61,633 nucleotides of DNA from a virus (taxonomy: Duplodnaviria > Caudoviricetes): IMG/VR virus record IMGVR_UViG_3300037508_000909, positions 1 through 61,633 of that record. The stretch is one strand, 5' to 3'. The position numbers were made by a program, and so were the translations under genes. Shown here one piece after another: positions 9,708 to 52,183 of the stretch (the stretch's first letter is position 1; each line of letters begins with the position of its first letter). The notes below the pieces were generated by a model. That model had not been told where the DNA came from. It worked only from the letters and a program-made list of their open reading frames with translations, and did not search any database.

Positions 9708-9709
9708 AG

Positions 9710-23023: not shown

Positions 23024-25146
23024 TGAAGAGTCCGCAAATCACTTCGGGGCGCGTTCAGAAAGCCAGCGCGGGCTGGATTCATGGAGTCAACTCCGTTCGC
23101 AACCCGTGGGCCTTACCGGAAGACCAAATCAAGTGGGCGCAGAACTGCACCATTCGTGGTGGCATAGGTCAGACGCGCAATGGATTCCGGATGAAGCTCT
23201 CGTTGCCCAAAGGGAATTTTCAAGGCGGAATTGTTTTTTCTGCGAACAAGCAGAACGAGGCTGCGACAACGATTGAAACGGCTGAAGGGCAACTGATTTT
23301 CAAGCCTCAAAGCATTTTCACGCCCAGCGGCGAATCTTCACAAGAGTATGAAATACCGTATCTTGTGTTTGCTGTTGATGGCATAGTTTACTACGCGCCA
23401 TTCCCTTTGACGCAACCAGCCGATTGGGCGGAGTACAGGTTGACTAATATTCGGCTCAACGCCGACGTAAAAAAAGTCAACTTTGTCATCGCGACGCAAT
23501 CCGCAATCGTTTCGAGCGGGGACGTAACCGTTACCCCATCGCATCGGCTGGTTATTGTGCAGGATGGCGTTTCGCAGCCGTGCTACTGGGACGGCTCGAA
23601 TAAAACAGGCAACGTCGCAACCAAAATGCCCGTTGGGTACTGGATGGCTTATTCGGGAAGTCGCCTCTGGCTTGCAAGCGGCAACATCATCTCAGCAAGC
23701 GATTTAGGCGACCCGCTTTCGTGGGAGGAGCGTAAGTCTGGCACGGGTCGCGGGGATTTCTCCGTCCCGCGTCCGGTCACTGCAATGGTTGATTACATCG
23801 GCCAAAACACCGAGTCTCGACTCTATGTGTTCACCGACCGAGCGACCTATTCGCTCGCATCCGGAATTCTCGACAGAACGCTTTGGCCTCAAACGGCAAA
23901 CTTCCAAACGACTCTGTATCCGAACATTGGATGCGTCGCTGGAAAGTCAATTGCATTTCAAGCCGGAATGATGTGGTGGTTCTCGCAAGGCGGACTTGTT
24001 TCTGTCGATGTTGCTGCCGCTTCATACCTCTCATCGCAAGTACTTTACAAAGACATCGAAATGGCGAAAGCCAAGCGATTGATGGCTCCAGACTTGTCGG
24101 GCATTTGTTGCGCTGCCTTTGAAAACTACCTGCTAACCTCGATTCCCTATGCCGAGCCGCTGAACTCTGCGACGATGGTTTTGGACTACGCGGCAGCGTC
24201 TGAATGGAACCAGAGCCGCTCGCCCGCGTGGGCTGGCGTTTGGACGGGGATTCGTCCGATTGAGTGGCTCAACGCTTACATCGGCAACGAGCCAAAGTTG
24301 TTTGCGCTGTCGGTCGATTACGCTCCCACGGGAGACCAGTCGTTCAATCACGTTTGGGAGGCTTTCCGTCCGGAGCGGTACGATACGTTTTTGGAAATTC
24401 GGCCAAGCGGAACAGTCGCAGAGCGTCAACAGCGGATTTACTGTCAGGTCGAAACCGCACTCATGGGCGACGGGATGGATTTGAAGCAACTCGTTTACGG
24501 AGAGGTAGATTGCTCTCAGATTTCCGGAACTGTTGACGTAAAAATCTCATACAGAGGCACAAAGGGGGCATACAACGAAATCCTGACCCAGCGCATCTTG
24601 GCTGCAACAAATGTCGCCGAGTACAAAAACTCACCGGACTACGCCAAAGTCAAAGACTTCGGGCTTTTGCAAACGCAGAGCCGTCGATTGATAACGCGAA
24701 ACATCGAAGGCGACGCACGCATAACTTCTTGTGAATCAAAGGATACGCAAAACGTGGACAAGGCGTTTTCCTACCTGATTGAATGGTGTGGTGCGCTCGG
24801 AGTTGAAGGTGTGCGAATGTTCCAAGACCCGTGGGCCGAACGCTCGGTCGGAGGCACAAAAATCATTGAAACCAAGTACTGCGTTGTCGGCGAGAATGGG
24901 CAGAGTGCGCTCATCGACATTCCAACCGCAACTCAAGCTCCGATTGCGCGACAGTGGCTTTCTTCGCAAACCAGAACCTACACGGATGTTTGCCCGAATG
25001 GCGGGCCAAAAATAACTGTAACAGCAACAGCCTCTGCGACTTCTATTGTTTCGCAAGCTGATGCAGACCAGATTGCCAGCGACAAAGCGATACGCGAAGC
25101 GACGGTTGCCGCGAAACAACAACGTCTCTCACGTCCTTGCCCGTAA
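23023..25146 (+). CDS. Tail nozzle / tubular protein B-like (predicted beta-propeller)
   Basis: 707 aa, beta-rich (MAYSGSRLWLA..ISASD, LYVFT); position typical of podovirus tails. Confidence 0.65.
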   Translation: MKSPQITSGRVQKASAGWIHGVNSVRNPWALPEDQIKWAQNCTIRGGIGQTRNGFRMKLSLPKGNFQGGIVFSANKQNEAATTIETAEGQLIFKPQSIFTPSGESSQEYEIPYLVFAVDGIVYYAPFPLTQPADWAEYRLTNIRLNADVKKVNFVIATQSAIVSSGDVTVTPSHRLVIVQDGVSQPCYWDGSNKTGNVATKMPVGYWMAYSGSRLWLASGNIISASDLGDPLSWEERKSGTGRGDFSVPRPVTAMVDYIGQNTESRLYVFTDRATYSLASGILDRTLWPQTANFQTTLYPNIGCVAGKSIAFQAGMMWWFSQGGLVSVDVAAASYLSSQVLYKDIEMAKAKRLMAPDLSGICCAAFENYLLTSIPYAEPLNSATMVLDYAAASEWNQSRSPAWAGVWTGIRPIEWLNAYIGNEPKLFALSVDYAPTGDQSFNHVWEAFRPERYDTFLEIRPSGTVAERQQRIYCQVETALMGDGMDLKQLVYGEVDCSQISGTVDVKISYRGTKGAYNEILTQRILAATNVAEYKNSPDYAKVKDFGLLQTQSRRLITRNIEGDARITSCESKDTQNVDKAFSYLIEWCGALGVEGVRMFQDPWAERSVGGTKIIETKYCVVGENGQSALIDIPTATQAPIARQWLSSQTRTYTDVCPNGGPKITVTATASATSIVSQADADQIASDKAIREATVAAKQQRLSRPCP

Positions 25147-25777: not shown

Positions 25778-26806
25778 ATGGGTGGCTCACCAGCAACGAT
25801 TCCAGCAAAACCGGATTTCTCAGTTGATGCTTTAAAAGTTCAGCTTGAAGGAGAGCAGGGTCGTTCCCGTTTGGCTCAAGAGATGAAGCAGCTTGGGTAT
25901 GCTGCAAACGCCCCTCTGGAGAATTTTACACCGGATGTTTGGGGGCCGGATGGCTTGCAAACACAGGCAGCGCAAATTGCTGCAATCAATGCATTTAAAT
26001 CCAAGAAAAACGAGCAAGAAGCAAATCCGGCTGCGGCAGCGATTCGGGAGCGGCTTCCGAAAATGATTGAGGAGGACTTGTCTGAGGACGCATGGAAAAA
26101 GAGAATGCAGTCGTGGGCGAAAGATGCTGGCATCACGCTCGGCGTTAAAACAGGTCTGGGAGATAGCACTGTCGCCCGCAGCGCACTGTTCGATGCAGCG
26201 ACTGAGGAAGGTGACCGTATTCGCAAAGAGCGTAAAGCAGAAGCCGCGCAGTTTCTCGCTTCAAATCCCCTTCAAAATGTTGGTCTCGACGCAGGGTCAC
26301 TTTTAAGCGCAAACCAATCGGCATTGCAAAATGCCATGACGCAGCGGAATAGCTTTCGCGATGCAATGTTTGGCAGAGTCGGACAGGCCAATCAAGCGAC
26401 CAGTGACTGGCTGAACAAAATGGGAGACACAATGTCACGCGCATCAGATTCTTACAAGCAAAGCTGGGACAACTACGCGCAAGGTATGGCGAAAGCGGCA
26501 GAGCAAAAAGCTGCCGCACGCAGCAAAATGATAGGAACAGTGGCTCAAATCGGCGGGACTGCGCTTGGCTCAATGGTGGGGATGCCGATGCTTGGTTCCG
26601 TCGTCGGAGGGCTTGTTGGGGCTGCTGCTGGAGGCAGTGGCACTGGCGGAGCAGAGCTTATGAATGCGATGGGCGCAACTCGCGGAGGAGGCGGCGGAGA
26701 AGGCGGAGGAGGCGGAAGATACGGTGGACTCGCGGATGATTTTTCTTCGTTAAAACAAAAATTCAGCGGTGAAAAACCGTGGTTTCCTTGGAGCCAAAAA
26801 TCTTAA
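25778..26806 (+). CDS. Internal virion (ejection) protein
   Basis: Ala/Gln helical, with a Gly-rich hydrophobic C-terminal segment. Confidence 0.6.
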   Translation: MGGSPATIPAKPDFSVDALKVQLEGEQGRSRLAQEMKQLGYAANAPLENFTPDVWGPDGLQTQAAQIAAINAFKSKKNEQEANPAAAAIRERLPKMIEEDLSEDAWKKRMQSWAKDAGITLGVKTGLGDSTVARSALFDAATEEGDRIRKERKAEAAQFLASNPLQNVGLDAGSLLSANQSALQNAMTQRNSFRDAMFGRVGQANQATSDWLNKMGDTMSRASDSYKQSWDNYAQGMAKAAEQKAAARSKMIGTVAQIGGTALGSMVGMPMLGSVVGGLVGAAAGGSGTGGAELMNAMGATRGGGGGEGGGGGRYGGLADDFSSLKQKFSGEKPWFPWSQKS

Positions 26807-26818
26807 CAACAACAACAT

Positions 26819-27244
26819 ATGGGTTCATCATCGTTCCAAATGCCAGCACCGGATTACACGCCGATTACCAAGATGTACGAGCAACAGGCGCAGTTGCAGC
26901 GTGAAGCCGCTGCAAAGGCGGACGCAGCGCAAAAGAAGGCAATGGTGGACGCGCAGGATAACGCTGCTCAACAGGCTCAAACGCAAGCAAATTACGCCGC
27001 CCAACAAGCCCTTGGTCGTCAAGCGGCAGCGCAGGAGGCAAAAGACGCTGCTGCGAAAGAAACGATGAACAAAAGCATGGCGGGCATGGGTTCTGCAATC
27101 GCTGGCTCAGGCTACGACCCAGCCAAGATGGAAGAGGCATTAAAGGTCGCACAACCATTTGCTCTTCCAGCGGTTGCTGATTTGATTGCGAGGCAAAACG
27201 AGCCTCAAAAAGAACGTAAACTCCTCAACCAACTCACTGCGTAA
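26819..27244 (+). CDS. Small Ala/Gln-rich internal virion protein
   Basis: MGSS start, coiled coil, operon position. Confidence 0.6.
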   Translation: MGSSSFQMPAPDYTPITKMYEQQAQLQREAAAKADAAQKKAMVDAQDNAAQQAQTQANYAAQQALGRQAAAQEAKDAAAKETMNKSMAGMGSAIAGSGYDPAKMEEALKVAQPFALPAVADLIARQNEPQKERKLLNQLTA

Positions 27245-27693
27245 TGGGAGGCTCAAGACCAGATATGTCTGCGGCAAAAGCTGCTGCAAAAGCTGCTTCG
27301 GAAGAAGCGCAACGAGGTTTTCGTGCCAGCCAACAACAGGCATCGTATGACGCTGCTTTGAGGCGTGCTCAAAATAAACGGGCGGAAGCAGAACAGCAAA
27401 TGACTGCTCCGCTGCAAATGATTCAACCACCGCAGCCAATGCAGCCTCCGGCTCCAACGCAGCCAGCGCAAGCACCTCAATCGCAATCGGCTCAAGTTCG
27501 GTCTGCTGCAAATCCAATGCCTCAAGGAGCTTACGGTTCAGCCCAGCAAGCGAAGATGGCTGCGCTCGGCACTGGGGCGGGAGCAGCGGCCATGAGTCCG
27601 GTCAACACTGCAAGGCCAGCAATGGCAATGGCACCACAGTTGAATTCATTTAACGCGCCAGAAGTAAACAATTTAAAATTCGGAGGAGCATAA
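27244..27693 (+). CDS. Small internal virion protein (paralog of next gene)
   Basis: QQAKMAALGTGAGAA...LNSFNAP..NLKFGGA. Confidence 0.6.
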   Translation: MGGSRPDMSAAKAAAKAASEEAQRGFRASQQQASYDAALRRAQNKRAEAEQQMTAPLQMIQPPQPMQPPAPTQPAQAPQSQSAQVRSAANPMPQGAYGSAQQAKMAALGTGAGAAAMSPVNTARPAMAMAPQLNSFNAPEVNNLKFGGA

Positions 27694-27694
27694 T

Positions 27695-28174
27695 ATGAGT
27701 TGGGTAGGTGACGCACTTGGAAGAAATAAAGGCAAAAAGCAAGCAGCAAAAGCAAAAGCTGCATTAGCTGCTGCAACAAAGAAGTTTACAGAAGAAGCGG
27801 CTGCGATGAAGAAGCAGACCGACCAAATCCAAAGCTATGCGTATCAGAAAGATGCATTAGCTCGTCGCGAGCAGAAGAAAGCACAGGCCGATGCAGAAGC
27901 GCAGCGAGTTGCCAGCGAGATGTCAAAGGCTGCATCTCCGGCTCAGGCTATTCAACGCGAAAACGAGGAGGCCGCGTCTGTTAATACACCGACTCCAAAT
28001 GTTGCTCCGCCCGCTGAAACCCCGCAACAGGCAAAAATCGCTGCACTTGGCGGAGGTGCTGGCGCGGCATCGGCTCCGGCTATTATGGCAAAAAAAGAAG
28101 AGGCGAAGCCCGCGCCGACTCTGAACGCCTTCACAATGCCATCCACCAAAAACGTACAATTCGGAGGCTCTTAA
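27695..28174 (+). CDS. Small internal virion protein (paralog of previous gene)
   Basis: QQAKIAALGGGAGAA...LNAFTMP..NVQFGGS. Confidence 0.6.
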   Translation: MSWVGDALGRNKGKKQAAKAKAALAAATKKFTEEAAAMKKQTDQIQSYAYQKDALARREQKKAQADAEAQRVASEMSKAASPAQAIQRENEEAASVNTPTPNVAPPAETPQQAKIAALGGGAGAASAPAIMAKKEEAKPAPTLNAFTMPSTKNVQFGGS

Positions 28175-28175
28175 T

Positions 28176-30119
28176 ATGTTGCAAGGCGTTGCTGCTCCTC
28201 AAATTGCGATAGTCACAACTCCAGTTCTATCCGCTCGCCCACAATTCAATTTTGGGCAGAGCAGTTTAGTTTTCACGCCGACCAAGGCTTACGAGTCGAG
28301 CAACAAGCAGCCCGACAATGACCTTGGCGACCTCGCAAAGGCTTTGAGGCAACAACAAAAGGACGAGCAGGAGCGCAAGCAGCAAGAGTATCGCGACGCG
28401 CAGCTAAAACTCGCGGAGAAGAAGCAGGATGAGTCGGAACGCCACAACCGCATGATGGAGCGCATTCGGGCCGCTTCCGATGGCATTGAGGACGTTGGCG
28501 GGGGCAGGGAGTTTGGCGAGGCGAACGATACTGAAGCGATGAGGGCTTTGGGTGTCGATAAGGAGCTTCCACCACTCAGCTTAAGAGACACTGCATTCGA
28601 GTTAGGCGATGTTCCAGTTAAGGCCGAAAGCGCGTCTCCCGAACAAAAAAAGCAAAGCACAAATGCTGAGATTTTAAGCAGCAACGCACCTATTAGCTCG
28701 ATTTCACCAAATGCCAGCCAAGAACCGTCGTATCTAGCTGACGTGGAGCTTGGTTGGCCGGAGGATGTTGGCGAACCACAGTATGAGCCTGAAAAGGACA
28801 AGCCAGCACTTGCTGGCCCCCCTAGCCTAGGGCAAGCCTTAATAAAGGCTCCAATTCAAGAATCAAAAGCAACAGTTGGCAATCAAGCCTTAACGCTTCA
28901 AAAGAGCGCAACGCCAAAAACTCAAAACGCAAGTCCGTTCGGCGATGTAAAACTTGAGCTTGGTGGCCCCTTAAATCAAGTATCAGCGACATTCGCAGAT
29001 ACTCAGAAAAAAGATGCGCCAAATGAAAGTGTCGCTCCTCTCCCAAGCAATGCTACTGATGAAGCTAGAATCGGTAAAGCATTGCCAACCATTGCTTTAA
29101 AAGCGGGAGAGGTTCCGTACAGCAGATTCAAAAACTACGAGGTAGCGAAGCAGTATTTAGAGGCAGTCAAGCGCGGAACGCCTGAAGTGACAGCAATGAC
29201 ACCAAAGGCAACAAGAGACTCAAAGGGGAGAGTCATCGGGTATGAAATTGAATGGAAGAGCAATGAGGAAGCCCTAAGAAAACAAGAAGAAAAACTCGCT
29301 GACGCACTGGCGAAAAAGGAAAAATTGACAGCAGACCAAGCAGCAGCAAGGTCAAAGCTCTTGCTGTCCGAGGGGCGAGCGGTTAACGCTCAAGACTCCA
29401 TTCGGAACTACACAAAGCCCAACGGATTTCGAGAAGCCGTTCAGCGATTCATCCCTGCCTATAACAACGCGACTGAAGCCGACAAGAAAAAACTCGCAAA
29501 CGTAGGTCTTTCAGATATCGATTTGATTGACAACTACGCACGGGCAATGGGTGGTGGAAAGATAACTGAAGGTCAAGCGCATTTAATATCTCAGGCGAAG
29601 ACGCTTAAAGAAAAAATGCAGGTTCTTTACGGACAGAATTTTGGAAAGGGCGAGCAACTTTCTCAAGCGCAAAGAGATACGATGCTTGAAAATATGCTTG
29701 AGGCGCATAACTCGCAAGCCCGCAACGCAAACAATATTTTAAAGCGTGTCAGGGAGCGACTGATAGTTAATGGCGTTAAGGATGAACTTTTCTTGCCCGA
29801 AACGTATACAGACAACTTAATCACAAAAACCAAAGCGCGGTCTGAACTCACTCGGCTGAAAGATGCCGTAAAAAGTTTAAGGATGGATGCAGAAAAAGTT
29901 GCTGGCAACAAGCTATTGTCTCAAGAGGAAAGAAACAAGAAGATAGTAAAAATTGGGAAAATGTTTGAGAAGTATAAATCAGAAATTGACCACTTGAGTG
30001 AAAGGCTTGATGACGAAGAATATAGCGGAACTGAGATTTTAGGTCTTGAGGATTTTGAAAAAGCCAAAGGCGGGTTTATTGCTGGAGATAGAATGGTCGC
30101 TGAAGCAGAAAAAGAGTAA
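28176..30119 (+). CDS. Internal virion protein (probable)
   Basis: 647 aa, charged and helical; precedes the giant protein. Confidence 0.6.
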   Translation: MLQGVAAPQIAIVTTPVLSARPQFNFGQSSLVFTPTKAYESSNKQPDNDLGDLAKALRQQQKDEQERKQQEYRDAQLKLAEKKQDESERHNRMMERIRAASDGIEDVGGGREFGEANDTEAMRALGVDKELPPLSLRDTAFELGDVPVKAESASPEQKKQSTNAEILSSNAPISSISPNASQEPSYLADVELGWPEDVGEPQYEPEKDKPALAGPPSLGQALIKAPIQESKATVGNQALTLQKSATPKTQNASPFGDVKLELGGPLNQVSATFADTQKKDAPNESVAPLPSNATDEARIGKALPTIALKAGEVPYSRFKNYEVAKQYLEAVKRGTPEVTAMTPKATRDSKGRVIGYEIEWKSNEEALRKQEEKLADALAKKEKLTADQAAARSKLLLSEGRAVNAQDSIRNYTKPNGFREAVQRFIPAYNNATEADKKKLANVGLSDIDLIDNYARAMGGGKITEGQAHLISQAKTLKEKMQVLYGQNFGKGEQLSQAQRDTMLENMLEAHNSQARNANNILKRVRERLIVNGVKDELFLPETYTDNLITKTKARSELTRLKDAVKSLRMDAEKVAGNKLLSQEERNKKIVKIGKMFEKYKSEIDHLSERLDDEEYSGTEILGLEDFEKAKGGFIAGDRMVAEAEKE

Positions 30120-30121: not shown

Positions 30122-33100
30122 ATGAATACAGGTTCCGATACGGGTGAAGATGTAGCGCAAGAGGAAAGCGATGCCATTTTAAAAAGAATTCGAGAAGAAG
30201 CGGACAAAATTACAGGTGCCACAAAAGATGAACCCGCCCCATTCGGTACGCCGGATACTTCGTATTCCGGCACTGGCGCGGATTTTGGAGCTACTGTTGC
30301 TCCGGCCCCTGCGCTCATGCCCGAAAAAAAATCGGAAGCCGAACAAGAGGTTGAGAGCACGCTGAACCGGATTCGTGAAGGCGCGAAAGAAATTGAAGCT
30401 AAGGAGCCGCAGCAAAAAGAAAAGGAAAGCAAGCCAAATTTAAGCTACATCGAACAAATCATCGGCACTGGCTATCAAAATTTAACGCCAGAGATGAAAC
30501 GCATCCTCAGCGAGGAGCGAGACCCTGAGAACCTTAAGGAACTCAGCGAGAAGATGCCCGCTTACGAAATGTCGGACGAGCAGTACAGCTTGCTTTTCGA
30601 GCGAGACAGAAGTAACAGCTGGAAAGATTTAAAAAAGGTTGCCCCTGAGTTTGTTAAAGCAATCCCCGAAGTCATCGCTCATTCCGCAAAAGAATTCGGG
30701 AAGTGGGGCGGAGGATTTTTGCGTGGAATGATGGGCATAGCAGGAGGCGTACAAGCCCAACAACTGCCAAGCGGAGCAGTTGTTTTCAGCCGAAGCGAAG
30801 ACACAAAAACCGCTCAAGCTGACAGAGAAGCTGGATTGAAAGCATTGGCCGCTCCGGCTCAAGCCATTGCCAATACAGCATATGGACTTGGAGCGACACT
30901 TGGTAAAAATTTAGCACTTGGCAACTATTATTTTGATTTGGTTGGGGAAACGATTGGTGTCAAGGACAAGTCCGAAAGCAAGGATAATTTTATAGCGAGA
31001 AAGAAGCTGCAATCGTCGCTTGCAAAAAGCGACATTGAGTCCCCGTCTGCAATCGAGAAGGCATTAAAAAGCGATTTTGCAAAAACAATAGCAGAGTCTG
31101 CACTTAAGCTCAACTTACCTTCAGCCAGCGAGTTGCTTGCATCGGACGTTACAAATCAGTTCAACGGAGATTTGCAAAAAGCGAGAGCTTACCGTGAAGC
31201 TGAAATTAAAAAAGCTGCAAGCGAAATCACAACGGATGTCAGCGACCAAGCGGCTGCTGCATATGACCCAGAAATGGCTGGTGCTGCTGGGTGGATTGTG
31301 CCGTATGGGAATGAATTTTCGGCAGTGATGGGTGGACTTGGCACTGTAAGCTCGTCTATCAAGGCATTTGCGAAAGCCAAGCAAGGTCGATTGACTGCCG
31401 ATGAAGCGAATGCGTTGGCGCGTGCAGAGCAAGCAAAGCTAAAGGTCGAAGCCCTTCAAAAACAGGCAGATGCATCAAAGGTTGGCCCAATAGGCAAAGC
31501 GTCAGAAAAGGTTGCAAATAAGATAGATGCAGCAGTCAAATACTTTGACGAAACATTGCAAAGGCTTCCGGAGAGCGTCCGGCCCTATATCGGCAAAGCT
31601 CTTGGCGCAGGAACCGTTGGAGGTCTAGCCGCATGGGCTGCGACAGACGAAGGCGTGGCTCCAAAACTGGCAGCTTCAATCGCACTACTTGCCGCGCCCA
31701 GAGTTATTTCGGATGCGTCGAAAGCCAGAGCTTTAGCTGGTGGAGGGATTCGTGGGACTTTTCAGGCAATGTCGAACCTTCCGGAAATGTCTGCCCAGAC
31801 AAAACTTATGATGGCTGGCATCAATCCGAAGCTGGCGGATTGGACGGTTCAGCGCGGAGCCGAGTTCGCCAAACGTGGGGTTCATGCCGCAACGCTCGCG
31901 ACTGCGCTCGGTCTCGCGAAAGACGAAACTCCAGCGCAGCTTGGGCGCGGAGTTGCTGAGGCGATTCTGATGGGCGAGGCTTACAATCTTGTGCATGGTG
32001 GTCTCAGCAAGGGGGCTAAAGCACTTACTGGTCAAGGCATTGCAACTCGCGATAGAACACTGGAGCAGTACAATCGCGAGCGGAACCAACAAATAAAAAC
32101 GCTCAATGCCATGAGCGAAGATTCGCGCAAGACTACGGAAAATTTAGTTTCATTTGACCGAGTTGTTGAGCAGGCGGAGGGATTTTTAAATGCCGAACAA
32201 GAGCGAGCCGCTACTCTTGAAGCTGCCCCAGAGCAAACAGAAGAAATCAAATCTGCACTAAAGGAATCACAGGCAAGACTTGCGATGCTCGCTGCGCGAC
32301 TCGAAGGGCTAAAGCGTGCCGACGCAGAAACGCGAATGGCTTATGAGCACGAAGTGCTCAACACAATTACGAACGCAGATGTTTTGATAAACGGAGCATT
32401 GACTCCGCAGAAAAACACAAAAATCGAAGTCCTGACGACGGAGCAAATAAAAAACAAACTGAAGGCTTTAAACCCAAGCCTTTCAGAAAGTGACATCGAC
32501 ACCATAGCCGAGCAACAGGGAGTGAGCTTTGGCTCCAGCGGATTGACTCAGGCTGCTGATGGCACTGCAATTGGAAAGCCTCAAGGGAACATCATATTTG
32601 ACTTGTTTAAAGGCTCGGTTGTGATTAACGCCGATGCCGTTGCTCGTCGCTTATCAAGTGGGGCGATGGCAGGGGAATCAATTTTAGATGCACTTGGGCA
32701 TGAAATTGGTCACGCGCTCGATAAAACTGCTGAATATCAAAATCTTACCGAGCAGATTCGCACTGAACTGTTTGGCAGGAAAATAACAGCACCTGACGGA
32801 AGGACAATTCACGCCGAAGAAGGACTTTACAAGCCGTCAGACTTGCTGGCGATGATGGCTCGTTATTTTGACCCGAAGGGCGAAAAAAGCGATGAGCAGA
32901 TAATCAACGAGCAGCGCAGCTTGGGGTTGCGCGACAAAAATGGCAATTTAAAGATTGAAGATGCCATTGAATATATGCAGTCCGAAATCATTGCTGATAT
33001 GGTCGGGCTGTCGTCAAACGACGTTGCGCTTCGTGAGGCTGGAGCAACAGAAATCGTTTTGGATTGGGTTAAAACGAAAACGAAAAACAAACTTGTCAAC

Positions 33101-36100
33101 AAGGTTTTAGACTCACTGAGCGGAGAATCACCGCAAGTTGTTGGCACTGGCATTGGCACTGGCGTTAAGTTTTTGCCTGAACAGCTAAAACGCAACAAGC
33201 TCGCTTTAAAGACTTTAGCAGATTTAGATGGATGGCTTACTCAGGTTCAAAACAAGCCGAAAAGGACGTTGACGAAATCTGAGGTGATGGCGAACAGGGC
33301 ACTGTTTAACCACTACTACAAAGACTCTGGAGCCGTTCGCACCACAATGGTAGCGGACATTGTCGATGGCAACGGGAATGTCGTTGAGCGCGTTCTGTTG
33401 CCGGATTCTGCGAAAACGAGCGAGTGGCAGATGAGCGTGGATGAAAATGGAAATACCGCTCCTGTAAAGGTTAGTGGATTCGGGGAGTTGCCTGTTGAGT
33501 TGTCCGGCAAGAGCATTCCCGATAACGGGAGAATGATTGTGCGCTCCGACGTGGTTGTTGACGCAAACGGCAAGCCAGTTGAGGTCAAGAACGTGCGAGA
33601 CATTTTGTTGCAACGCTCGCAGTTGATTCGGGCCGCGCTAGAAAATGCTCCTGACGCGCAATCCGCCGATGCGATGCGTGCGAGGTCAAAAGACGGGCTG
33701 ATGTTTCGTGGTCGGCTCACTCCGGCGCAGCGCAAAAACATCGAAAACCTTCCAGAACTCATCGTCCCATATTCCATTAAGCTCAAGCTATTTGCGCTTA
33801 ATGACGCAATGGCGAAAAATGACGGCACTCGGATGCTCGCTGAGTACGCCGCAAGGCTTTCCGACAGCGGCAGATACGTTGACTTCTCTCCCACCATCAT
33901 TGATTTCGTGCCGATTGGATTCCAGTTCTCGAAGGCTGGAAACTTCTTGGTCACAACTGTTTCAGTGAGCGGGCTGAACAGGAAGTTCGACCTGATGATG
34001 AAGCAGATGCCGTCGAGATTCTCCCTGTGGAACTACGACAAAGACTCGTTTATGGACGAGTTCACAAACAAGTATCTCGCGAATTTAGCTGCCGGAAGAA
34101 ACGGGGAAATAGGACTAAGTGAAGACCCGCAAACGGCTCTGAATAAAAAGAACATCTTCAACGACTTAGTAAACGCTTTTGACGCGAACACGGAAGATGC
34201 AAATCCAGATAGAACTGAGTTGCAGCCGACTGGCTTGACGAAAGAGGAAAAGAAGGAGTGGAAGCAAAGCGACCCGAACACGGTCATTCGCTCGCGGCGT
34301 TTGGATTCATTGACGGACGTTATCGAATCGAATCAAACCAAGATGCCGTTCGATTACGGCAAGTTGAAAATCAATTTTCTGCCGGAGCAACAAAACGTCG
34401 GAGAGCGACCAGAGGTTTTGCGCGTCGAGGACGAGCGCATCACGGATGCGACTTATATCCGACCGGATGGTTCGATTTCGTTGGGCGCAACGCACTTGGA
34501 GGCGAACCCAGACGCTTCAAAAGACCCAGAGGAGCGCAACAGCGACCGCTACGGGTTTATGACGAGCACGGGCCGCGTGATTGGCCGAGCCGAGGCTTAC
34601 GACATCGCAGCCGAGAACGGGCAACTCATTGCGGAATCGCCGACGCTCGAATTACGTTCAGATAACGTAGACCTCGCTTCCGAACGCAATGGGCCTGATG
34701 TCAACTTTTTGCCGAGTGGCGAGTCGGAGCTTCCCAGCGCAGAGGAACGAGCAAGCGTGCGTCGCGCTGCGCCAAAATATTCGTTGGAGACGAAGCGTCA
34801 AAACCTACTTGGTGAAGGGGAATCGAACGAAGTCATAATCCGCGACGAGTTTGGAGATGACGTTGGACGAGCCGTTTACCGCATCAACTCGAAAAATCCG
34901 AATCGGGCCGAAGTCATCAGTACGGTTGTATATCCGCATCAGCGAAATAAGGGCTTTGGTTCGTTGCTGTACGCCGAGTTGGCGTCGGCAGCAGCAGCGG
35001 ATGGCGCAACAACTCTATACAGTGACGCAGTCAGCCCAATGGCTCTGCGTCGCAGGAAATCGCTCTTCAAGACGGACGTTCTCGGAGAGATGTCTGTTGG
35101 CGGGAGAAAAGCATTTGAGGCTGAGAGCTTTATAGGCAAGCCTCCAGAAAATCTCGACCGGATTGTCGCGAGCAATGGAGTTGCGACGAGCGCAGGGATT
35201 CAGTATCTGCCTGACATCATTGGCAAGCACTGGTCTGCCAATGATTTTGAAGAACCTGATGTTCGTAAGTATGGCGGGACATCGTTCGGATTAGTTTGGG
35301 GCTGGGGATTTTATTCCTCAACAATGGAGAATATTCCAGAGTCGTATCAGCTGACCCAATCGCAGAAAATTAATGCAATTCAAGACCCAAAAACCGAGCT
35401 ATATTCAATTGTAAAAATACAAAGAGGCGGAGCGGAAACCATATTGGCAAAGGGCTTAAACAAAGAGGATGCCGAAGAGATTACGCAAAACCTCAAGGAG
35501 AAAAGTGGATACTTTTACAAGTTTAAGGTAAAAAACGAGGAATTGTACATGGATGCCAATAAGGGCGTGTATGAGCAAACACCAGAAATTCAAGGCGCAC
35601 TAGAAAAAATTATTAATTTATTGGCTAAAAATGATGAGCTTATAGACGGAATGGGAAGGCCGATATCTGCCAAGCAGTTTAAAGATAACGCAATTGAAAA
35701 CACAAGGCTTATTTATACTGTTTTAGCCGCAAATGAATATACCACCAAAGACATCGTAAGGCGTGAATTTAGCAATATTGCAAACGGGCGAGCTTCAAAA
35801 TTATTTAAACTTTCTCAAATTGAAAAAGCGTCGAGACTTATTGTTGAACAAGAGCAAATGAGCAGCCATGAATACGCTTCGCGACTGCTTAATACTCTTG
35901 GAATTGAAGGTATAAAATACAACACCCCGCCTAGAGGTCTTTTAAATATATATCAAAGGAAAAAAGAGCTTCCAGTAGAACAGCCAACTCGCGGATTCAA
36001 TTATGTAACCTTTGCGCCAGAGACACTTACGCTCGAAGGCAAAGAGCAGTCATTTAACATTCGCGAAGCCCTTGGCGAAAAGGGATATCAGGCCGGACTG

Positions 36101-39100
36101 AACTTTTTGCCATCGACGGAAAACACTGAAGAGAGGCGTTTTGAAAAAACGCAGGACGCTTTGGCTGGCGTGCCGCGCAGGGCTAGGCCGGAGCAGATTC
36201 TCAAAGCGTTGACAGCGAGCGGTATATCCGAACAGGAGATAAAGCTGCGCGGCATCAACAGTGCGATGGAAGGCGCAATGGACGCAAATGGGTATGTGTC
36301 TCGCGACGAGCTTTTGAATGCGATGCAGGTTGAGCGTCAGAGGGAATTGGATAATGCCTATGCTGTAAAGGTTTACGAATCTTCAGACGCTCCGGCATTT
36401 CAGGCCAGCGTGCAGGATTCAAATGGGGAGCAGGTAATCGTCCGGATTGAGGACAGTAACAATGCGTCTGTCATCAAATCGGTTGAGCCGGATTCGCTCG
36501 AAACCACTGCGAGCGTGAATATTACACGCACAAAAGATGGCAAGTTCATCGTGCTTGATGAGAGCAACAAGCCGTTGCTTTTGAAGCGCAACGATTTGCG
36601 GTTCGACGGCCAACAGAATGCCTTTGAATTCGCGTCGGAAGAAGAAGCGCGTCGTGCAGTCGCAACGCTGGAGAACGCACGGGCTGACGCGCCCGTGGAG
36701 CCGTCTGAACGTGCTGTTGGAGTCCCAGAATTCAAGGTGGCAGTCAACGCTGCAATCCGCGATGGCAACAAGGCAGTCGAGTGGTCGTCCACTCAGTCTC
36801 CGGACGCGATTGACGCTTACGTCGGGCAGTGGGGCGGGAAAGCGGAGCGCACTGCCGAGGGATGGCGCGTCGAGTTGCCGGAGGGATTGCTTCGCGACGC
36901 AGAGCAGTTTGGCACGGTGCAGTTTTTGCCTGAGCGGTCTGTTGCTGTCGTTCCAGAGCGATTCTTCGGCTCGGAAACAGACAACAGGCTGGACGTAACG
37001 ACTGGCCGGATTCGCAGGTACGCTGGCAGTCCAAACTGGGTTCAAAAATTCAACGTCACCGAGTACGTCGCCGGAGGCAAATTCTTCGATAGCGTTACAG
37101 GAGAAGACCTTACAAATCGACCTGTTGCATCGACTGGGATTTCAGTCAGTGGTGGCAAGCCAAAAATGACAGCGATTGACGACGCTCCCCCAGCCACTGC
37201 AAACCTCGGCAACGTGCGTCGCAGCAACCTGTTCAAGCAAAGTGCTGGCTGGCAATGGGTTTCAGAAAATCCTCCGAAAACTGAAACGCTTATCTCTCTG
37301 GAAGGTAGCGGGTTATTTAAAGACAGGTCTGACAAACACGCCTACGCGCTCGATTTGACTTTTGAAAATGGAGCCGTGTTGCAGTCGTACCCAGCGAAGC
37401 CGAACGAGCCTCGACTGCGTCCAACTGGCAACGGGGATGTTGTTTTTGGGCCGGAAGTGGGTCGCATCAAAACGAGCGGAGGCAAAGAGCATCCGGTGTA
37501 CGGATGGGCGCGAGTTGTTGCTCCAGAACGCACTGGAGTGCAGTTCCTCCCCGAAGATGCAAGGCGCAGGGACGAGGAGTACCGCAAAGCCGTTGACGCA
37601 AATGACACTGAAACGGCTGGACAATTGGTAGAGGAGGCCGCGAAGGCTGCTGGGTACACAATCAAAGCGTATCACGGGACGCGCAACAAAGATTTCACTA
37701 TCTTCAAAACAGGTGATTTAGGGCATCATTTCGGGCTTTCGCTTGACCAAGTTTTTGGGCCTTACGGTAGGTTTAGCGACACGCAACGCAATCAAGTTAG
37801 GTTGGTTGAGGCTTATCTAAATATTCAAAACCCGCTTGAACTTACAGATAGGGGTTACTGGAGTGGGCCGTTGACCGTTCGAGAAGTAAACGAAAAAACA
37901 GGCTCAAATCTTTCTGAAGAAGGTTCAACTGCAGGGGATATTCAGGCAGCTATTAAGCGTGCTGGTTATGATGGCGTAGTTTACGAAAACCTCCACGAAG
38001 GCGAAGAGGGAGGCACGGCGATGATTGCCTTCAATCCCAACCAGATTAAATCCGCCGAGCCCGTAACTCGCGATGCTGACGGCAACGTCATCCCCTTGTC
38101 GCAGCGGTTTAATCCTGAGCAAGCAGGGATTCAGTTCCTTCCAAGCGTAACAACCGACGTAAGCGACTCGGAAACAAAGCAATACAAGATTATTCTTGGA
38201 ACAAAAGCTGGCGAGTATGGGTTCAGCCTCTCGCGATTGTCGAACCTGTATAAAAACAACGAGGCGTTTGCTTTTAACCAACAAGCAATCACTTTAGGAA
38301 AAGAAGCAGAAAAGGCTCGTAAGGAACTGGTTACAGCGCAAAATAAACTGCAAAAAGCGAACACATCAAGCGATTCCACAACGATTGAAAAGCTATCCGG
38401 CGAGGTTGATTCGCTTCAAAAGGAATTCGATACCGCGAATCAAAACCTACAAAAAGCCATAAGCGAACGCTCTACTACTCTCTTGCAAAATATTGCGAAT
38501 GAGAAAGATGCGGATAAGCTCGCTACGTTGGAAAATGAATATCAAGACCTTCAGGGCTTTGTTCAAACGGCTGAAATGCCGATATTTAGCTCAACAAAAA
38601 ATGTTGTTGGCAAAAAATTGGTTGAAAAGGCTGAGTCAAAGTTTGAGTCCGACTTCCAACGAATCACAATCGCTCCACCGTTTACTCTGCCTTCAAAAAG
38701 TGGACTCGTTGACCAAGATGCCATCGCGGATGGCGTTCAGAGAAAAATCTTTAACTCTGGCAGCTTTAGGAACTTGCTGATTGATTTCTTTGGAGAAGAT
38801 ATTGGCGGAAGGCTGCAAATTGTTAATAACGGGCACGGAACATGGCTTGGTGGTCGCGAGCGAAATGTAGAGCTAGTCTTGCCGAAAGATGTTGTACGCA
38901 CTCCGGAACTAGACGCTAAACTCAAATTATTTGTCTCTGCAATGGGATTCGGAATGGCTCAAGATGCTGCAATCCTTTACAGACCAAGACTTGGCAACGA
39001 AGAGAAAACGGACAATGAAAGTACTCAGTATTATGTTTATTCCAAAACGCCGATGACCAAGGCGAAGGCGAATAAAATAATGCAAAAGGCCGAGGGCTTA

Positions 39101-41224
39101 AAAATTGAATCGCCAGACGGAAGCGTCGAATACGTTGACTGGACGCTATTATCGACAGGGAATGGTTTCAGGCTCATGTATTGGGGGGAAAACCAAGAGG
39201 GATTTGAGGCTAAACTTGAGGAACTAAGAAAATTAATTGGCCCAGACGCAGTAATTGAAGAAAGTCCAGTAGAATCAGAACTTTATGACACCCAAACAGA
39301 ATTCGCACAATCCGGAGAAAAAACCGTCGAGAAAAGTTTATCCGCGCCTGTCGGAGGACAGTCCCTTTTTGCGAGAATTATCGATTCGGTTTTCAAGCCC
39401 TATGCAAAAATCGTTACAGCAGCAGGATACGAATTCCAATACGGGGACTGGCAAAAACGATTTGGACTCTCTGACCAAACAGTAGCTGCAATTCGCGATG
39501 AATTGTATCCAAAAAATGGGAACCAAATATCTGTAAGGAAGCTATTTAAAAACCCCGAACAGCTTGGGGTTGCTCCCGAAATCACCAAAGATGGGAAGGA
39601 GATTGCCTTAGACGAAAACGGCAACCCGAAATACAAGCTGACCGTCAACGAAATGATTCAGAAGCTGCAAGGACGCACGCAACAAGCGGGTGTCATTGCA
39701 GAGGATGACTTTTCTGAAAGGGCAAAAAAGATTCTTTCGCAAGCCATTGCAGATGAAGTGGATGGTCAAGTCGAGCGTGCAACGCTTGGACAAGGTGCTG
39801 CGATTAAAGCTGTTGGGTGGTACAACGAAGTGATTCGGCGGATGAGGCAGATTTACGCCTATCCTGAAATCGAAGAGCTTGGGGAGATGGACAAGTTCCG
39901 ATTCCTTGACCCAAATGCAGCCGAATACGACCCGATAAAATCGTTGGTATTTGATATCGTTCTGGGCGCGACATCGCAGGGCAACAACGTGTTTGAAAAC
40001 GCAAAGATGGCAGTCCGCATCATGCTCATGTACATGAACGGAAGCACTTTGAGAGAAGCTACAAAAAAACTCAGCGGCAGCTTTGGCGACAAAACCGTTG
40101 CGATTGAGGACAATATAAATAAAGCGGAGTTTTTATTGAATAGTATTGGCCCAGAGCAACTTGGGAAGCTGTTCAACGAAGTCAAGACCATCAGCGAGTG
40201 GGAAGATTTGTTAAAAAATGACTTGAGGTTGCAATGGAAGGGCAAGCCACTTGAATTTGCAGGACTTGCAAAAGGTCAAAAAGCTACTGGCTTTTTTGTG
40301 TTCGGCCCGAAGATTGGGAGCTTCATAAACAATCTGCACGGCAACTATGACACTTTGACGGCAGACCTCTGGTTCTCGAGGACGTGGAATCGACTTCTTG
40401 GGAAGTCATTTAAGTACGACCCGCTACTGGCGGAGCGACAGTTCAGAGTGTTTAGCGACACTCTGGAAGAGCTTTGGAACAGTGGTCAGTTCACCGCTGC
40501 CCGTGAACAGTTGAAGCTCGACATTCAGGAAGCGGAAAAAAATCTGAGGGAAGCAGAGGAGTCCGGCAGTGACAAAAGAGCCTTGAAAAAGGCAGCAAAT
40601 CAACTGTCAACACTAAAGGCTCGGTTTGAGGCAATGCCAAGTCTCGAAACTCAAGCAGATTATGATGCATTAACAAGCGACCTAGGCTCAATGATAGCCG
40701 CTGCTGCAAAACTCTTCAAAAACTACAAAGAAGGTGGTTTTAAAGTAAAAAGCAATTTGAATTACGCGGCAAAGAACTTGTCTGAAAACCTCACAACTCC
40801 AATCGCAGCACCCATTTCCGCAAATCAGCGAATTTTCCAGACAGAAGTTGTTCGCGAAGCGCAAAGGTTGTTGAGAAAGAAGGGTTTAGATTTGACGATT
40901 GCAGACATACAGGCTTCCTTGTGGTTCAACGAGAAGGAGTTGTATGCAATTTACGGGGCAGCGCGTGGTGGTGCGAAGCAAGCTGACTACTCGCACGGGG
41001 CAACCGGAGCGTTGTTCGCAATGGCAGCGGGTTCGCTTTACGAAGTGAATCGCAAAAATGACAGTGGGAAGCCGCAACCATTCCGACTCTTGAGCGAAGC
41101 CGAGGAAAAGAAGTTGACTGGAGTCGAAGCCCCGAATCGAAATCTGAAAATGACGGTTGAGGAACTTCGAGAAAAACTTGGCCTTGGGAAAGAAGAGGAG
41201 GCGGACGAGGAAGATGAAGAGTAG
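30122..41224 (+). CDS. Giant polyvalent/ejection protein (zincin-like HExxH, GNAT, two ART-like modules, C-terminal HhH-like domain)
   Basis: 3700 aa; HEIGH near 32700; VYPHQRNKGFGSLLY (GNAT motif A); AYHGT...GYDGVVY...QIKS; KHWS...GWGFYSS...GIEGIKY. Confidence 0.8.
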   Translation: MNTGSDTGEDVAQEESDAILKRIREEADKITGATKDEPAPFGTPDTSYSGTGADFGATVAPAPALMPEKKSEAEQEVESTLNRIREGAKEIEAKEPQQKEKESKPNLSYIEQIIGTGYQNLTPEMKRILSEERDPENLKELSEKMPAYEMSDEQYSLLFERDRSNSWKDLKKVAPEFVKAIPEVIAHSAKEFGKWGGGFLRGMMGIAGGVQAQQLPSGAVVFSRSEDTKTAQADREAGLKALAAPAQAIANTAYGLGATLGKNLALGNYYFDLVGETIGVKDKSESKDNFIARKKLQSSLAKSDIESPSAIEKALKSDFAKTIAESALKLNLPSASELLASDVTNQFNGDLQKARAYREAEIKKAASEITTDVSDQAAAAYDPEMAGAAGWIVPYGNEFSAVMGGLGTVSSSIKAFAKAKQGRLTADEANALARAEQAKLKVEALQKQADASKVGPIGKASEKVANKIDAAVKYFDETLQRLPESVRPYIGKALGAGTVGGLAAWAATDEGVAPKLAASIALLAAPRVISDASKARALAGGGIRGTFQAMSNLPEMSAQTKLMMAGINPKLADWTVQRGAEFAKRGVHAATLATALGLAKDETPAQLGRGVAEAILMGEAYNLVHGGLSKGAKALTGQGIATRDRTLEQYNRERNQQIKTLNAMSEDSRKTTENLVSFDRVVEQAEGFLNAEQERAATLEAAPEQTEEIKSALKESQARLAMLAARLEGLKRADAETRMAYEHEVLNTITNADVLINGALTPQKNTKIEVLTTEQIKNKLKALNPSLSESDIDTIAEQQGVSFGSSGLTQAADGTAIGKPQGNIIFDLFKGSVVINADAVARRLSSGAMAGESILDALGHEIGHALDKTAEYQNLTEQIRTELFGRKITAPDGRTIHAEEGLYKPSDLLAMMARYFDPKGEKSDEQIINEQRSLGLRDKNGNLKIEDAIEYMQSEIIADMVGLSSNDVALREAGATEIVLDWVKTKTKNKLVNKVLDSLSGESPQVVGTGIGTGVKFLPEQLKRNKLALKTLADLDGWLTQVQNKPKRTLTKSEVMANRALFNHYYKDSGAVRTTMVADIVDGNGNVVERVLLPDSAKTSEWQMSVDENGNTAPVKVSGFGELPVELSGKSIPDNGRMIVRSDVVVDANGKPVEVKNVRDILLQRSQLIRAALENAPDAQSADAMRARSKDGLMFRGRLTPAQRKNIENLPELIVPYSIKLKLFALNDAMAKNDGTRMLAEYAARLSDSGRYVDFSPTIIDFVPIGFQFSKAGNFLVTTVSVSGLNRKFDLMMKQMPSRFSLWNYDKDSFMDEFTNKYLANLAAGRNGEIGLSEDPQTALNKKNIFNDLVNAFDANTEDANPDRTELQPTGLTKEEKKEWKQSDPNTVIRSRRLDSLTDVIESNQTKMPFDYGKLKINFLPEQQNVGERPEVLRVEDERITDATYIRPDGSISLGATHLEANPDASKDPEERNSDRYGFMTSTGRVIGRAEAYDIAAENGQLIAESPTLELRSDNVDLASERNGPDVNFLPSGESELPSAEERASVRRAAPKYSLETKRQNLLGEGESNEVIIRDEFGDDVGRAVYRINSKNPNRAEVISTVVYPHQRNKGFGSLLYAELASAAAADGATTLYSDAVSPMALRRRKSLFKTDVLGEMSVGGRKAFEAESFIGKPPENLDRIVASNGVATSAGIQYLPDIIGKHWSANDFEEPDVRKYGGTSFGLVWGWGFYSSTMENIPESYQLTQSQKINAIQDPKTELYSIVKIQRGGAETILAKGLNKEDAEEITQNLKEKSGYFYKFKVKNEELYMDANKGVYEQTPEIQGALEKIINLLAKNDELIDGMGRPISAKQFKDNAIENTRLIYTVLAANEYTTKDIVRREFSNIANGRASKLFKLSQIEKASRLIVEQEQMSSHEYASRLLNTLGIEGIKYNTPPRGLLNIYQRKKELPVEQPTRGFNYVTFAPETLTLEGKEQSFNIREALGEKGYQAGLNFLPSTENTEERRFEKTQDALAGVPRRARPEQILKALTASGISEQEIKLRGINSAMEGAMDANGYVSRDELLNAMQVERQRELDNAYAVKVYESSDAPAFQASVQDSNGEQVIVRIEDSNNASVIKSVEPDSLETTASVNITRTKDGKFIVLDESNKPLLLKRNDLRFDGQQNAFEFASEEEARRAVATLENARADAPVEPSERAVGVPEFKVAVNAAIRDGNKAVEWSSTQSPDAIDAYVGQWGGKAERTAEGWRVELPEGLLRDAEQFGTVQFLPERSVAVVPERFFGSETDNRLDVTTGRIRRYAGSPNWVQKFNVTEYVAGGKFFDSVTGEDLTNRPVASTGISVSGGKPKMTAIDDAPPATANLGNVRRSNLFKQSAGWQWVSENPPKTETLISLEGSGLFKDRSDKHAYALDLTFENGAVLQSYPAKPNEPRLRPTGNGDVVFGPEVGRIKTSGGKEHPVYGWARVVAPERTGVQFLPEDARRRDEEYRKAVDANDTETAGQLVEEAAKAAGYTIKAYHGTRNKDFTIFKTGDLGHHFGLSLDQVFGPYGRFSDTQRNQVRLVEAYLNIQNPLELTDRGYWSGPLTVREVNEKTGSNLSEEGSTAGDIQAAIKRAGYDGVVYENLHEGEEGGTAMIAFNPNQIKSAEPVTRDADGNVIPLSQRFNPEQAGIQFLPSVTTDVSDSETKQYKIILGTKAGEYGFSLSRLSNLYKNNEAFAFNQQAITLGKEAEKARKELVTAQNKLQKANTSSDSTTIEKLSGEVDSLQKEFDTANQNLQKAISERSTTLLQNIANEKDADKLATLENEYQDLQGFVQTAEMPIFSSTKNVVGKKLVEKAESKFESDFQRITIAPPFTLPSKSGLVDQDAIADGVQRKIFNSGSFRNLLIDFFGEDIGGRLQIVNNGHGTWLGGRERNVELVLPKDVVRTPELDAKLKLFVSAMGFGMAQDAAILYRPRLGNEEKTDNESTQYYVYSKTPMTKAKANKIMQKAEGLKIESPDGSVEYVDWTLLSTGNGFRLMYWGENQEGFEAKLEELRKLIGPDAVIEESPVESELYDTQTEFAQSGEKTVEKSLSAPVGGQSLFARIIDSVFKPYAKIVTAAGYEFQYGDWQKRFGLSDQTVAAIRDELYPKNGNQISVRKLFKNPEQLGVAPEITKDGKEIALDENGNPKYKLTVNEMIQKLQGRTQQAGVIAEDDFSERAKKILSQAIADEVDGQVERATLGQGAAIKAVGWYNEVIRRMRQIYAYPEIEELGEMDKFRFLDPNAAEYDPIKSLVFDIVLGATSQGNNVFENAKMAVRIMLMYMNGSTLREATKKLSGSFGDKTVAIEDNINKAEFLLNSIGPEQLGKLFNEVKTISEWEDLLKNDLRLQWKGKPLEFAGLAKGQKATGFFVFGPKIGSFINNLHGNYDTLTADLWFSRTWNRLLGKSFKYDPLLAERQFRVFSDTLEELWNSGQFTAAREQLKLDIQEAEKNLREAEESGSDKRALKKAANQLSTLKARFEAMPSLETQADYDALTSDLGSMIAAAAKLFKNYKEGGFKVKSNLNYAAKNLSENLTTPIAAPISANQRIFQTEVVREAQRLLRKKGLDLTIADIQASLWFNEKELYAIYGAARGGAKQADYSHGATGALFAMAAGSLYEVNRKNDSGKPQPFRLLSEAEEKKLTGVEAPNRNLKMTVEELREKLGLGKEEEADEEDEE

Positions 41225-52127: not shown

Positions 52128-52144
52128 CATCATCAAAAATCATC

Positions 52145-52183
52145 AACAGCCCCCCTCGCGGGGGGCGCAACCTACCAAAAAAA
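52145..52183 (+). repeat. Type-B leader hairpin repeat, copy 4
   Basis: GCCCCCC-TCGC-GGGGGGC-GCAACCTACCAAAAAAA. Confidence 0.75.

Follow-up and report, generated by a model that had tools for sequence, protein, structure and literature searches.

The complete IMG/VR virus record IMGVR_UViG_3300037508_000909 (61,633 bp, completeness rating 98%; hereafter the window, meaning the whole stretch of DNA analysed) carries a single open reading frame (ORF) for a giant protein of 3,700 aa, in which a short peptide recurs eight times at the borders of otherwise unrelated modules. Pfam recognises only two parts of this protein, a GNAT acetyltransferase domain (aa 1571-1634) and an ADP-ribosyltransferase (ART) domain of the ART-PolyVal family (aa 2511-2646). 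Searches of PHROGs with the whole protein and with its modules return the ART match plus two weak matches and nothing more. The junction peptide, [ILV][NQK][FY]LP[ESD], is this clade's spelling of a family-wide [ITV][RQN][FY][MLS]P. Motif 1 lies inside an N-terminal core that includes a zincin-like region, motif 2 ends the core, and the others separate the cargo modules (M2 to M8):

30122..41224, plus strand: giant ORF (P0001), 3,700 aa, a single ORF in the ORF list and translation; Pfam finds GNAT and ART-PolyVal
33167..33181, plus strand: motif 1, KFLPE (aa 1016-1020; hexapeptide VKFLPE, aa 1015-1020, from nt 33164), inside the core between the zincin-like region and M1
34373..34387, plus strand: motif 2, NFLPE (aa 1418-1422; INFLPE from aa 1417, nt 34370), at the core end, the best conserved site
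34703..34717, plus strand: motif 3, NFLPS (aa 1528; VNFLPS from aa 1527, nt 34700), from the sequence scan
35201..35215, plus strand: motif 4, QYLPD (aa 1694; IQYLPD from aa 1693, nt 35198), from the sequence scan
36101..36115, plus strand: motif 5, NFLPS (aa 1994; LNFLPS from aa 1993, nt 36098), from the sequence scan
36920..36934, plus strand: motif 6, QFLPE (aa 2267; VQFLPE from aa 2266, nt 36917), proline invariant in alignment A1
37541..37555, plus strand: motif 7, QFLPE (aa 2474; VQFLPE from aa 2473, nt 37538), proline invariant in alignment A1
38132..38146, plus strand: motif 8, QFLPS (aa 2671; IQFLPS from aa 2670, nt 38129), with the top matrix score of the eight

A preliminary description of this DNA had listed eight x(N/Q)FLP motifs in one ORF; all are present, within 1-3 nt of where it had placed them. 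Every [FY]LP tripeptide of the giant protein (8/8) lies within [NQK][FY]LP[ESD], and each follows I, V or L. Across 2,000 shuffles of the protein the mean is 0.03 motifs, and no shuffle has more than 1. When the window is scanned in all six frames, a single extra match turns up, in a minus-strand frame interrupted by stops, and the family position matrix finds no match at a lax threshold in the remaining 69 plus-strand ORFs, which total 15,920 residues. The leucine of the motif is encoded by TTG, CTG, CTC or CTT across the eight copies and the proline by CCT, CCG, CCA or CCC, and the longest exact word common to copies is 13 nt. Because the copies differ in synonymous codons, the conservation is at the peptide level and not that of a DNA repeat: selection acts on the motif peptide. 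For the same reasons, the possibility that the motif is a DNA-level repeat or recombination site is not supported.

Conservation of individual sites was assessed in an alignment of 13 diverse full-length proteins (A1) and in core alignments of 21 core segments. In the latter the proline of motif 2 is invariant (21/21) and its asparagine is retained in at least 90%. The surroundings of the motif are those of a linker: the 20 residues that follow it are hydrophilic, with a Kyte-Doolittle (KD) value of about -1.0 against -0.56 for the proteins overall (187 windows), and positions -4 and -3 are mainly G, A, S or D. AlphaFold2 (AF2) models span aa 765-1440 and aa 765-1045 and therefore cover motifs 1 and 2. 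In the longer model (21 sequences; predicted local distance difference test score, pLDDT, of 73) motif 2 falls at an order-to-disorder edge, and motif 1 is flanked on both sides by stretches with pLDDT below 50. In the shorter one, motif 1 forms an island of pLDDT about 82 with disorder on either side, a two-residue strand next to the zincin-like domain.

The giant protein belongs to a large family whose members were found in metagenomes only. A length-limited search of proteins of 2,035-6,475 aa retrieved 40 relatives, and a profile of aa 765-1440 matched 581 cluster representatives at E <= 0.001 among 1.84 billion (396 at E <= 1e-10, 169 at E <= 1e-30). An alignment-based locus scan gave 27 IMG/VR loci, and a scan with the single protein gave no relatives. 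Cultured phages showed no match by megablast with the ORF or by tblastn with aa 801-1417 and with M6. A protein identical to the query (P0002) was left out throughout, and four loci (L002, L010, L023 and L028), which are duplicates or fragments of L003, L007, L016 and L018, were excluded from module mapping and start-codon counts.

Across this family the motif is a regular feature. Strict copies number 4-9 in 20 of 23 close and distant relatives, against 0.6-1.3 expected, and at least one copy is present in each of the 23 IMG/VR giant proteins that remain once four duplicates are removed. The consensus of 87 distinct windows is [GAS][DGQ][ITV][RQN][FY][MLS]P[AES]; its information lies mainly in the aromatic residue, the proline, the residue between them and the residue before the aromatic. 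F and P are nearly invariant even though the cores of these proteins are only 26-35% identical. Copies in one protein tend to share a spelling of the motif, and different clades tend to have different ones:

(N/Q/K)(F/Y)LP: window phage and its three closest relatives
RF(M/S)P: most other relatives
(S/N/A/R)FMP: P0019 and P0020
AMPD: P0022 and P0023
QYRP: P0024

Module M6, which occurs in many architectures, allows this tendency to be quantified. In 28 proteins (P0025-P0041 left out), the motif that precedes M6 was compared at positions -1 and +1 with the spelling that prevails among the other motifs of its host. The two agree in 40 of 56 comparisons; permutation of hosts gives 25.1 +/- 3.0, and none of 2,000 permutations reaches 40. 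Such agreement fits, and at the level of sequence suggests, one co-evolving reader per lineage.

The more distant, classical polyvalent proteins P0025-P0041 display a related junction peptide, (D/N/P)-D-I-R-(Y/F)-S, located after ART tails of the form '...PLSERF' and also after some non-ART modules. It is found 9 times in P0029 (1.5 expected, shuffle maximum 8), 6 times in P0041 (0.7 expected, maximum 4) and 1-4 times in most of the others (about 1 expected). Judged by eye, P0028 and P0030 apparently use other short junction peptides, '..SGIT..' and '..(T/S)SI..'.

The motifs delimit a conserved core followed by variable cargo. The core (aa ~120-1440 of the giant protein in BLAST high-scoring segment pairs, HSPs) is colinear and always comes first. 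It is followed by two to ten modules in varying order (GNAT, ART-PolyVal, PBECR5 and many with no known family), with at least six alternatives for the C-terminal module. In the giant protein the order after the core would be a possibly y16D-like module, GNAT, two modules without assigned family, the 'VAVVPERF' module, ART and a large module without assigned family:

34373..34702, plus strand: M2 (aa 1418-1527), possibly T4 y16D-like
34703..35200, plus strand: M3, GNAT acetyltransferase (PF00583)
35201..36100, plus strand: M4 (aa 1694-1993), AT-rich, no assigned family, a mosaic allele as judged from GC and identity to P0003
36101..36919, plus strand: M5, no Pfam or PHROG match
36920..37540, plus strand: M6, the 'VAVVPERF' module, widespread in giant proteins
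37541..38131, plus strand: M7, ADP-ribosyltransferase (ART-PolyVal, PF18760; phrog_21376)
38132..41221, plus strand: M8, C-terminal module of 1,030 aa, no Pfam or PHROG match

The preliminary description had also named several of these modules. Its GNAT module is borne out by Acetyltransf_1 (PF00583), which matches M3 alone at E 3.8e-6 (score 27.6 bits, cut-off 20.7), and the second of its two 'ART-like' modules, M7, matches ART-PolyVal at E 1.4e-16 and phrog_21376 at E 7.6e-13. The AT-rich composition that it ascribed to M4 is real, with a GC content of 0.406 against 0.540 and 0.557 in the neighbouring modules. M4 was also its first 'ART-like' module, and that assignment is not supported: there is no Pfam or PHROG match, and an hhalign comparison of 4 M4 sequences with 11 ART sequences reached a probability of 2.7% over 27 columns, which still leaves room for a very distant relation. 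M2 has no match in the Pfam scan; its Atlas feature score of 0.83 to clusters of PF26092, a family precomputed for the relative P0004, is a lead only. M6 occurs, in changing places along the chain, in 32 of 195 family proteins, with no match in Pfam or PHROG and no usable Atlas match; no stand-alone version of 113-363 aa appeared among 248 word-sharing candidates, a search bounded by shared words and length. M8 is also found in P0009, P0013, L018 and L026, among others. A further module of about 540 aa ('K540'; P0008 aa 1470-2005 and homologues), absent from the window protein, follows the core in most relatives; it has no assigned family and includes the conserved stretches DAPFRKDW and GGEGMKGFYD.

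The coincidence of motifs with domain edges, suspected from the single sequence, holds for the family. When 19 reference modules were mapped on 46 proteins, a motif was found no more than 10 aa away from 82 of the 104 module starts and from 112 of the 126 module ends; only the matrix, not the set of module limits, had been trained on these same proteins. Reference modules were used instead of single-linkage clustering, which fused unrelated modules via uncut segments. Similarly, BLAST alignments of 23 proteins with one another have 1,396 internal ends, of which 266 fall within 5 aa of a strict motif, against 28.6 +/- 5.3 (maximum 43 in 200 trials) for random placement.

Comparison of homologues, one of the checks proposed with the preliminary description, shows modules gained, lost and reordered at the motifs. 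For example, P0003, which is 88% identical to the giant protein overall, lacks M7 exactly from motif to motif, and the motif copies that flank the missing unit have the 8-nt word CAGTTCCT in common. Identity between the two proteins is 94-100% in M1, M2, M3, M5, M6 and M8, 89% in M0 (the part of the core preceding M1) and 62% in M4, so that M4 stands out between flanking modules of 94-100%. In P0004 and P0005 the slot of M7 is occupied by a different 181-aa module. Some exchange points lie inside modules: the replacement in P0005 keeps the first ~35 residues of the ART module and its '...SERF' tail, and the divergence of M4 starts, by eye, ~45 aa past its motif. The proposal of a recombination joint at the DNA level is weakened by the different synonymous codons, by a longest shared word of 13 nt and by the exchanges inside modules. 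In the replacement modules themselves (P0004 aa 2548-2728 and P0005 aa 992-1172), the N-terminal ART helix (E..Y..AV...D...A..L.EEAAKAAG) is kept together with a '..PSERF' C-terminal tail, so helix and tail may form a common frame for differing cores.

The core contains the second element of interest, a conserved candidate metal site:

30122..34372, plus strand: N-terminal core (M0 + M1, aa 1-1417), colinear and first in all relatives, with HSPs in all full-length relatives
32414..33130, plus strand: zincin-like region (aa 765-~1003), with HEIGH, a downstream invariant Glu and an AF2 model
32699..32713, plus strand: HEIGH (H860, E861, H864; aa 860-864), conserved in relatives
32984..32986, plus strand: E955, candidate third metal ligand, invariant in alignments
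33167..34372, plus strand: M1 (aa 1016-1417), whose C-terminal part resembles a WYL/Sm-like barrel

An HExxH zincin motif had been noted upstream of the modules, and HEIGH at aa 860-864 is indeed present and conserved in relatives. HEIGH and E955 are invariant in 13/13 diverse full-length proteins and in 21/21 core segments, and HExxH or HExxxH occupies the HEIGH columns in 114 of the 118 representatives that cover them. One clade spells the signature HExxGH, a spacing also present in DPP III peptidases. In the AF2 model of aa 765-1045 (pLDDT 70; predicted template modelling score, pTM, 0.70), HEIGH lies inside helix 90-102 and E955 on helix 181-200. A complex prediction of aa 765-1004 with a 45-aa stretch containing motif 8 scored 0.00 against a mark of 0.32; run without controls, it has no bearing on whether the two bind. 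The C-terminal part of M1 (aa ~1157-1413) gave VIA matches to PafBC, BrxR, CapW and DriD (Z 6.3-8.0, root-mean-square deviation 2.1-3.2, 85-94 residues), the best of them to PafBC, BrxR and CapW (Z 7.4-8.0, model residues 393-649). In defence regulators, WYL/Sm-like domains are ligand binders, ssDNA being one of the ligands. Since the Z scores are middling, the resemblance is a lead only.

The giant ORF is the last gene of a large late-gene block, and its start codon lies 3 bases past the stop of the preceding gene. Upstream in the block are a 1,714-aa protein with PHROG matches to tail or virion structural proteins and a 707-aa protein matching the PHROG 'internal virion protein' at E 2e-7. 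The gene for the latter (23023-25143) is found upstream of the giant gene in 25 of 27 related loci, and that for a 342-aa protein (25778-26803) in 26 of 27; PDB sequence searches with two upstream genes returned nothing relevant. The large late genes at 3404-13530 and 25778-30116 are mostly without any Pfam or PHROG match. On the 3' side of the giant ORF, PHROG matches identify an exonuclease, a Sak4-like protein, a single-stranded DNA-binding protein (SSB), a primosomal protein and a DnaC-like loader. A clearly membrane-inserting N-terminus was considered for the giant protein and dropped because only two 19-residue windows (aa 511-529 and 2934-2952) reach a KD of 1.2.

These features place the giant protein among the polyvalent proteins, as the preliminary description had supposed from its module content. 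At least two unrelated effector domains, GNAT and ART-PolyVal, occur in one chain, and relatives add PBECR5 and DUF7178. The chain is phage-encoded, in an IMG/VR virus record with replication and virion-type PHROG matches. Signature families are present: PF18760 in the giant protein, PF18814 in relatives and LPD29 in a separate ORF. In the portrait of polyvalent proteins drawn in parts of PMC5512222, a giant multi-effector phage chain, ART-PolyVal, GNAT and an HExxH domain all recur. The giant protein differs in having no Pfam match to MPTase-PolyVal, and its core and most of its modules fall in no described family. The LPD29 domain (E 4e-16) is that of a 231-aa ORF at 52109-52801; the family was defined on large polyvalent proteins, and a polyvalent-type module is thus also a free-standing gene in the same phage.

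The observation from which this analysis started is confirmed and applies to a large uncultured family as well, and its interpretation is partly supported by the module borders and the module exchange. Every junction has the motif in a linker, selection acts on its amino acids, it is confined to the giant protein, it varies with the lineage, and it always accompanies a conserved metal-site domain. This combination suggests that the giant protein is a polyvalent, probably virion-borne protein whose motifs are candidate processing sites, with its own zincin-like domain as the likeliest protease, a reading whose chances we judge to be about even. Processing of polyvalent proteins by zincins was proposed by Iyer et al. 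in 2017, the site being left unnamed in the text of PMC5512222 available to us. In such a scheme the giant protein would be made late and packaged in the virion, would enter the cell along with the DNA, and would then be cleaved at each motif, the prime candidate for this being the zincin-like domain of the same chain, so that the freed enzymes could work as separate early effectors. The S1' pocket of zincins accepts a large hydrophobic side chain. By analogy, the scissile bond may lie directly before the invariant F/Y.

Several observations weigh against this reading. Modules show no match to a Pfam peptidase family at E <= 1, nor to MPTase-PolyVal; Foldseek returns 0 matches at E <= 0.001 with either AF2 model; VIA matches to the Certhrax, EF and LF N-terminal domains, the LF catalytic domain and YbeY reach Z 3.2-4.7 only (Z 3.9-4.3 in another VIA run); and hhalign aligns the HExxH helix with that of the classical polyvalent protein P0035 at a probability of 0.9% only. 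Given how little these four comparisons add to the signature, 'zincin-like' is a reasoned label rather than an established membership. A PDB profile search with the region also returned nothing relevant. The signature is non-canonical in 4 of the 118 representatives (three HExxE, one YExxxH). Among these, P0122 and P0139 have no motif, and P0106 and P0140 have 3 and 1 at matrix threshold 11 (4 and 2 at threshold 8). Motif 1 is poorly conserved, the homologous place reading EFSPE, NLPPE or TLTPD or being without a motif. A proline two positions past the aromatic residue could hinder some proteases, and the agreement of spellings is also compatible with shared ancestry or gene conversion. As to packaging, capsid, portal and terminase are unrecognised by Pfam and PHROG among the ORFs of the window, and the giant protein is probably virion-borne with gene order as the sole guide.

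Other explanations of the motif share part of this evidence. The same sites might be cut by another protease, either an unrecognised phage head-maturation enzyme or a host protease met after injection. The fold of the core region is not established as a zincin, a prohead protease could hide among structural genes that are mostly unrecognisable, and ejection proteins of giant phages are described as cut by a prohead protease in sections of PMC10052503 and PMC5694885. The motif is nevertheless missing, at the lax threshold, from all other ORFs, candidate capsid and scaffold genes included, which argues against a general head-maturation consensus common to capsid proteins. Clade-specific spelling better fits a phage-encoded reader than a conserved host enzyme, and the HExxH...E signature would require another role; an outside protease thus seems unlikely. 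It is somewhat easier to imagine, while still improbable in our judgement, that the motif is never cut and acts as a short linear docking peptide. One partner (the core's own domains, a chaperone, or the inside of the capsid or its portal) would recognise it at junction after junction, so that a beads-on-a-string chain could be packed, put in order or threaded through the tail. A short conserved island within flexible linkers, the ordered two-residue strand that motif 1 forms beside the zincin-like domain in the domain-only model, and a mostly uniform spelling within one protein would all suit docking, as would the virion RNA polymerase of N4, packaged unprocessed according to the account of Iyer et al. 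in PMC5512222, as far as that text was available. Such a docking peptide is without an identified partner, however, and a tag at every junction is hard to explain when one per protein would suffice for packaging; GNAT, ART and nucleases are, moreover, more readily imagined active when free.

The motif might also have no reader at all, being a linker, or a cap at the end of a domain, that travels with the modules and persists because recombination at junctions builds new architectures. The highly mosaic architectures, the loss in P0003 of exactly one motif-to-motif unit whose flanking copies share an 8-nt word, and M4, a foreign-looking allele between motifs (by its GC content and its lower identity), speak for such a passive junction. 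Against it stand the synonymous codon differences and short exact shared words, the near-invariance of F and P in proteins with strongly diverged cores, and the exchange points inside modules, so that a passive junction has, in our estimation, only a small chance of being the explanation. Finally, the Met codon of the RFMP spelling might initiate translation of separate module proteins, since ATG stands at position +1 in 75 of 97 motif copies of the IMG/VR giant proteins. Shine-Dalgarno (SD)-like words, however, precede 17 of these 75 and 336 of 1,466 other internal Met codons, 23% in both cases. The window protein has Leu at +1, with CTC and CTT among its codons, many copies elsewhere have Ser, and conservation of the neighbouring F and P is at the amino-acid level. 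Internal initiation is therefore effectively rejected and is very improbable.

A bolder form of the processing-site reading would make polyvalent phage proteins self-processing effector polyproteins with a lineage-specific 'cleavage code', in which a zincin-like domain acting in cis would cut before the aromatic residue after injection. The code would be I-(R/Q/N)-(F/Y)-(M/L)-P in the marine family and D-I-R-(Y/F)-S in classical polyvalent proteins of gut/Firmicutes type. We consider this generalisation unlikely. If it were true, each freed enzyme would start with F or Y, residues that are destabilising under the N-end rule in bacteria, and a short effector lifetime would be built in.

Known systems offer partial parallels to a processed effector chain. 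MARTX toxins, in the portions of PMC3153235 consulted, follow the same logic, with several effectors in one chain that a built-in protease frees after delivery. Their protease is a cysteine protease, whereas the candidate in the giant protein is a metallopeptidase-like domain whose cleavage is here a supposition; the target would be a bacterium and the vehicle a phage, and no homology was detected. Pfam finds no MARTX-type cysteine protease domain (CPD) in any module of the giant protein. In RNA-virus polyproteins a repeated short junction peptide co-varies with the lineage's own protease. Here the virus is a DNA phage, the cargo consists of effectors, not of replicase or capsid components, and any processing is putative. 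Prohead-protease consensus sites are present in many head proteins of the same phage. By contrast, the junction motif is confined to one protein, and no prohead protease is recognised in the window. A likeness to prohead processing of the T4 gp21 and phiKZ/SPN3US type lies in the cutting of virion-packaged proteins at short consensus sites before ejection (PMC5694885 and PMC10052503, in part). The virion RNA polymerase of N4 (~3,500 aa) is likewise packaged and injected and has a zincin-like domain, and is reported as packaged unprocessed (parts of PMC5512222). No RNA polymerase domain or sequence similarity to it was found in the giant protein.

No cleavage or junction motif is named in the text of PMC5512222, supplements being outside this statement. 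Within the same limit, the motif, its clade spellings and its use as a delimiter are not described in the literature searched, which included portions of PMC9503650 and PMC12014285. The current view is that polyvalent proteins are the earliest phage proteins at work in the infected cell, and the activation of a chain of a dozen unrelated enzymes has so far been a proposal without a site. A conserved junction peptide together with a conserved metal-site domain provides a concrete, mutable target for it. If the site is cleaved, these proteins would be a phage counterpart of MARTX-type toxins and viral polyproteins. The motif also gives a practical rule for splitting hundreds of unannotated giant metagenomic proteins into modules, many of which, being without a known family, are candidate anti-defence or host-takeover enzymes.

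Elsewhere in the window, a 131-aa ORF at 465-857 has a Tad2-like (Thoeris anti-defence 2) domain (E 1.9e-15), an ORF at 2315-2815 has a ParB_N domain (E 3.5e-7), and an ORF of Peptidase_M15_4/VanY type at 14360-14821 (E 2.7e-16) is probably the endolysin.

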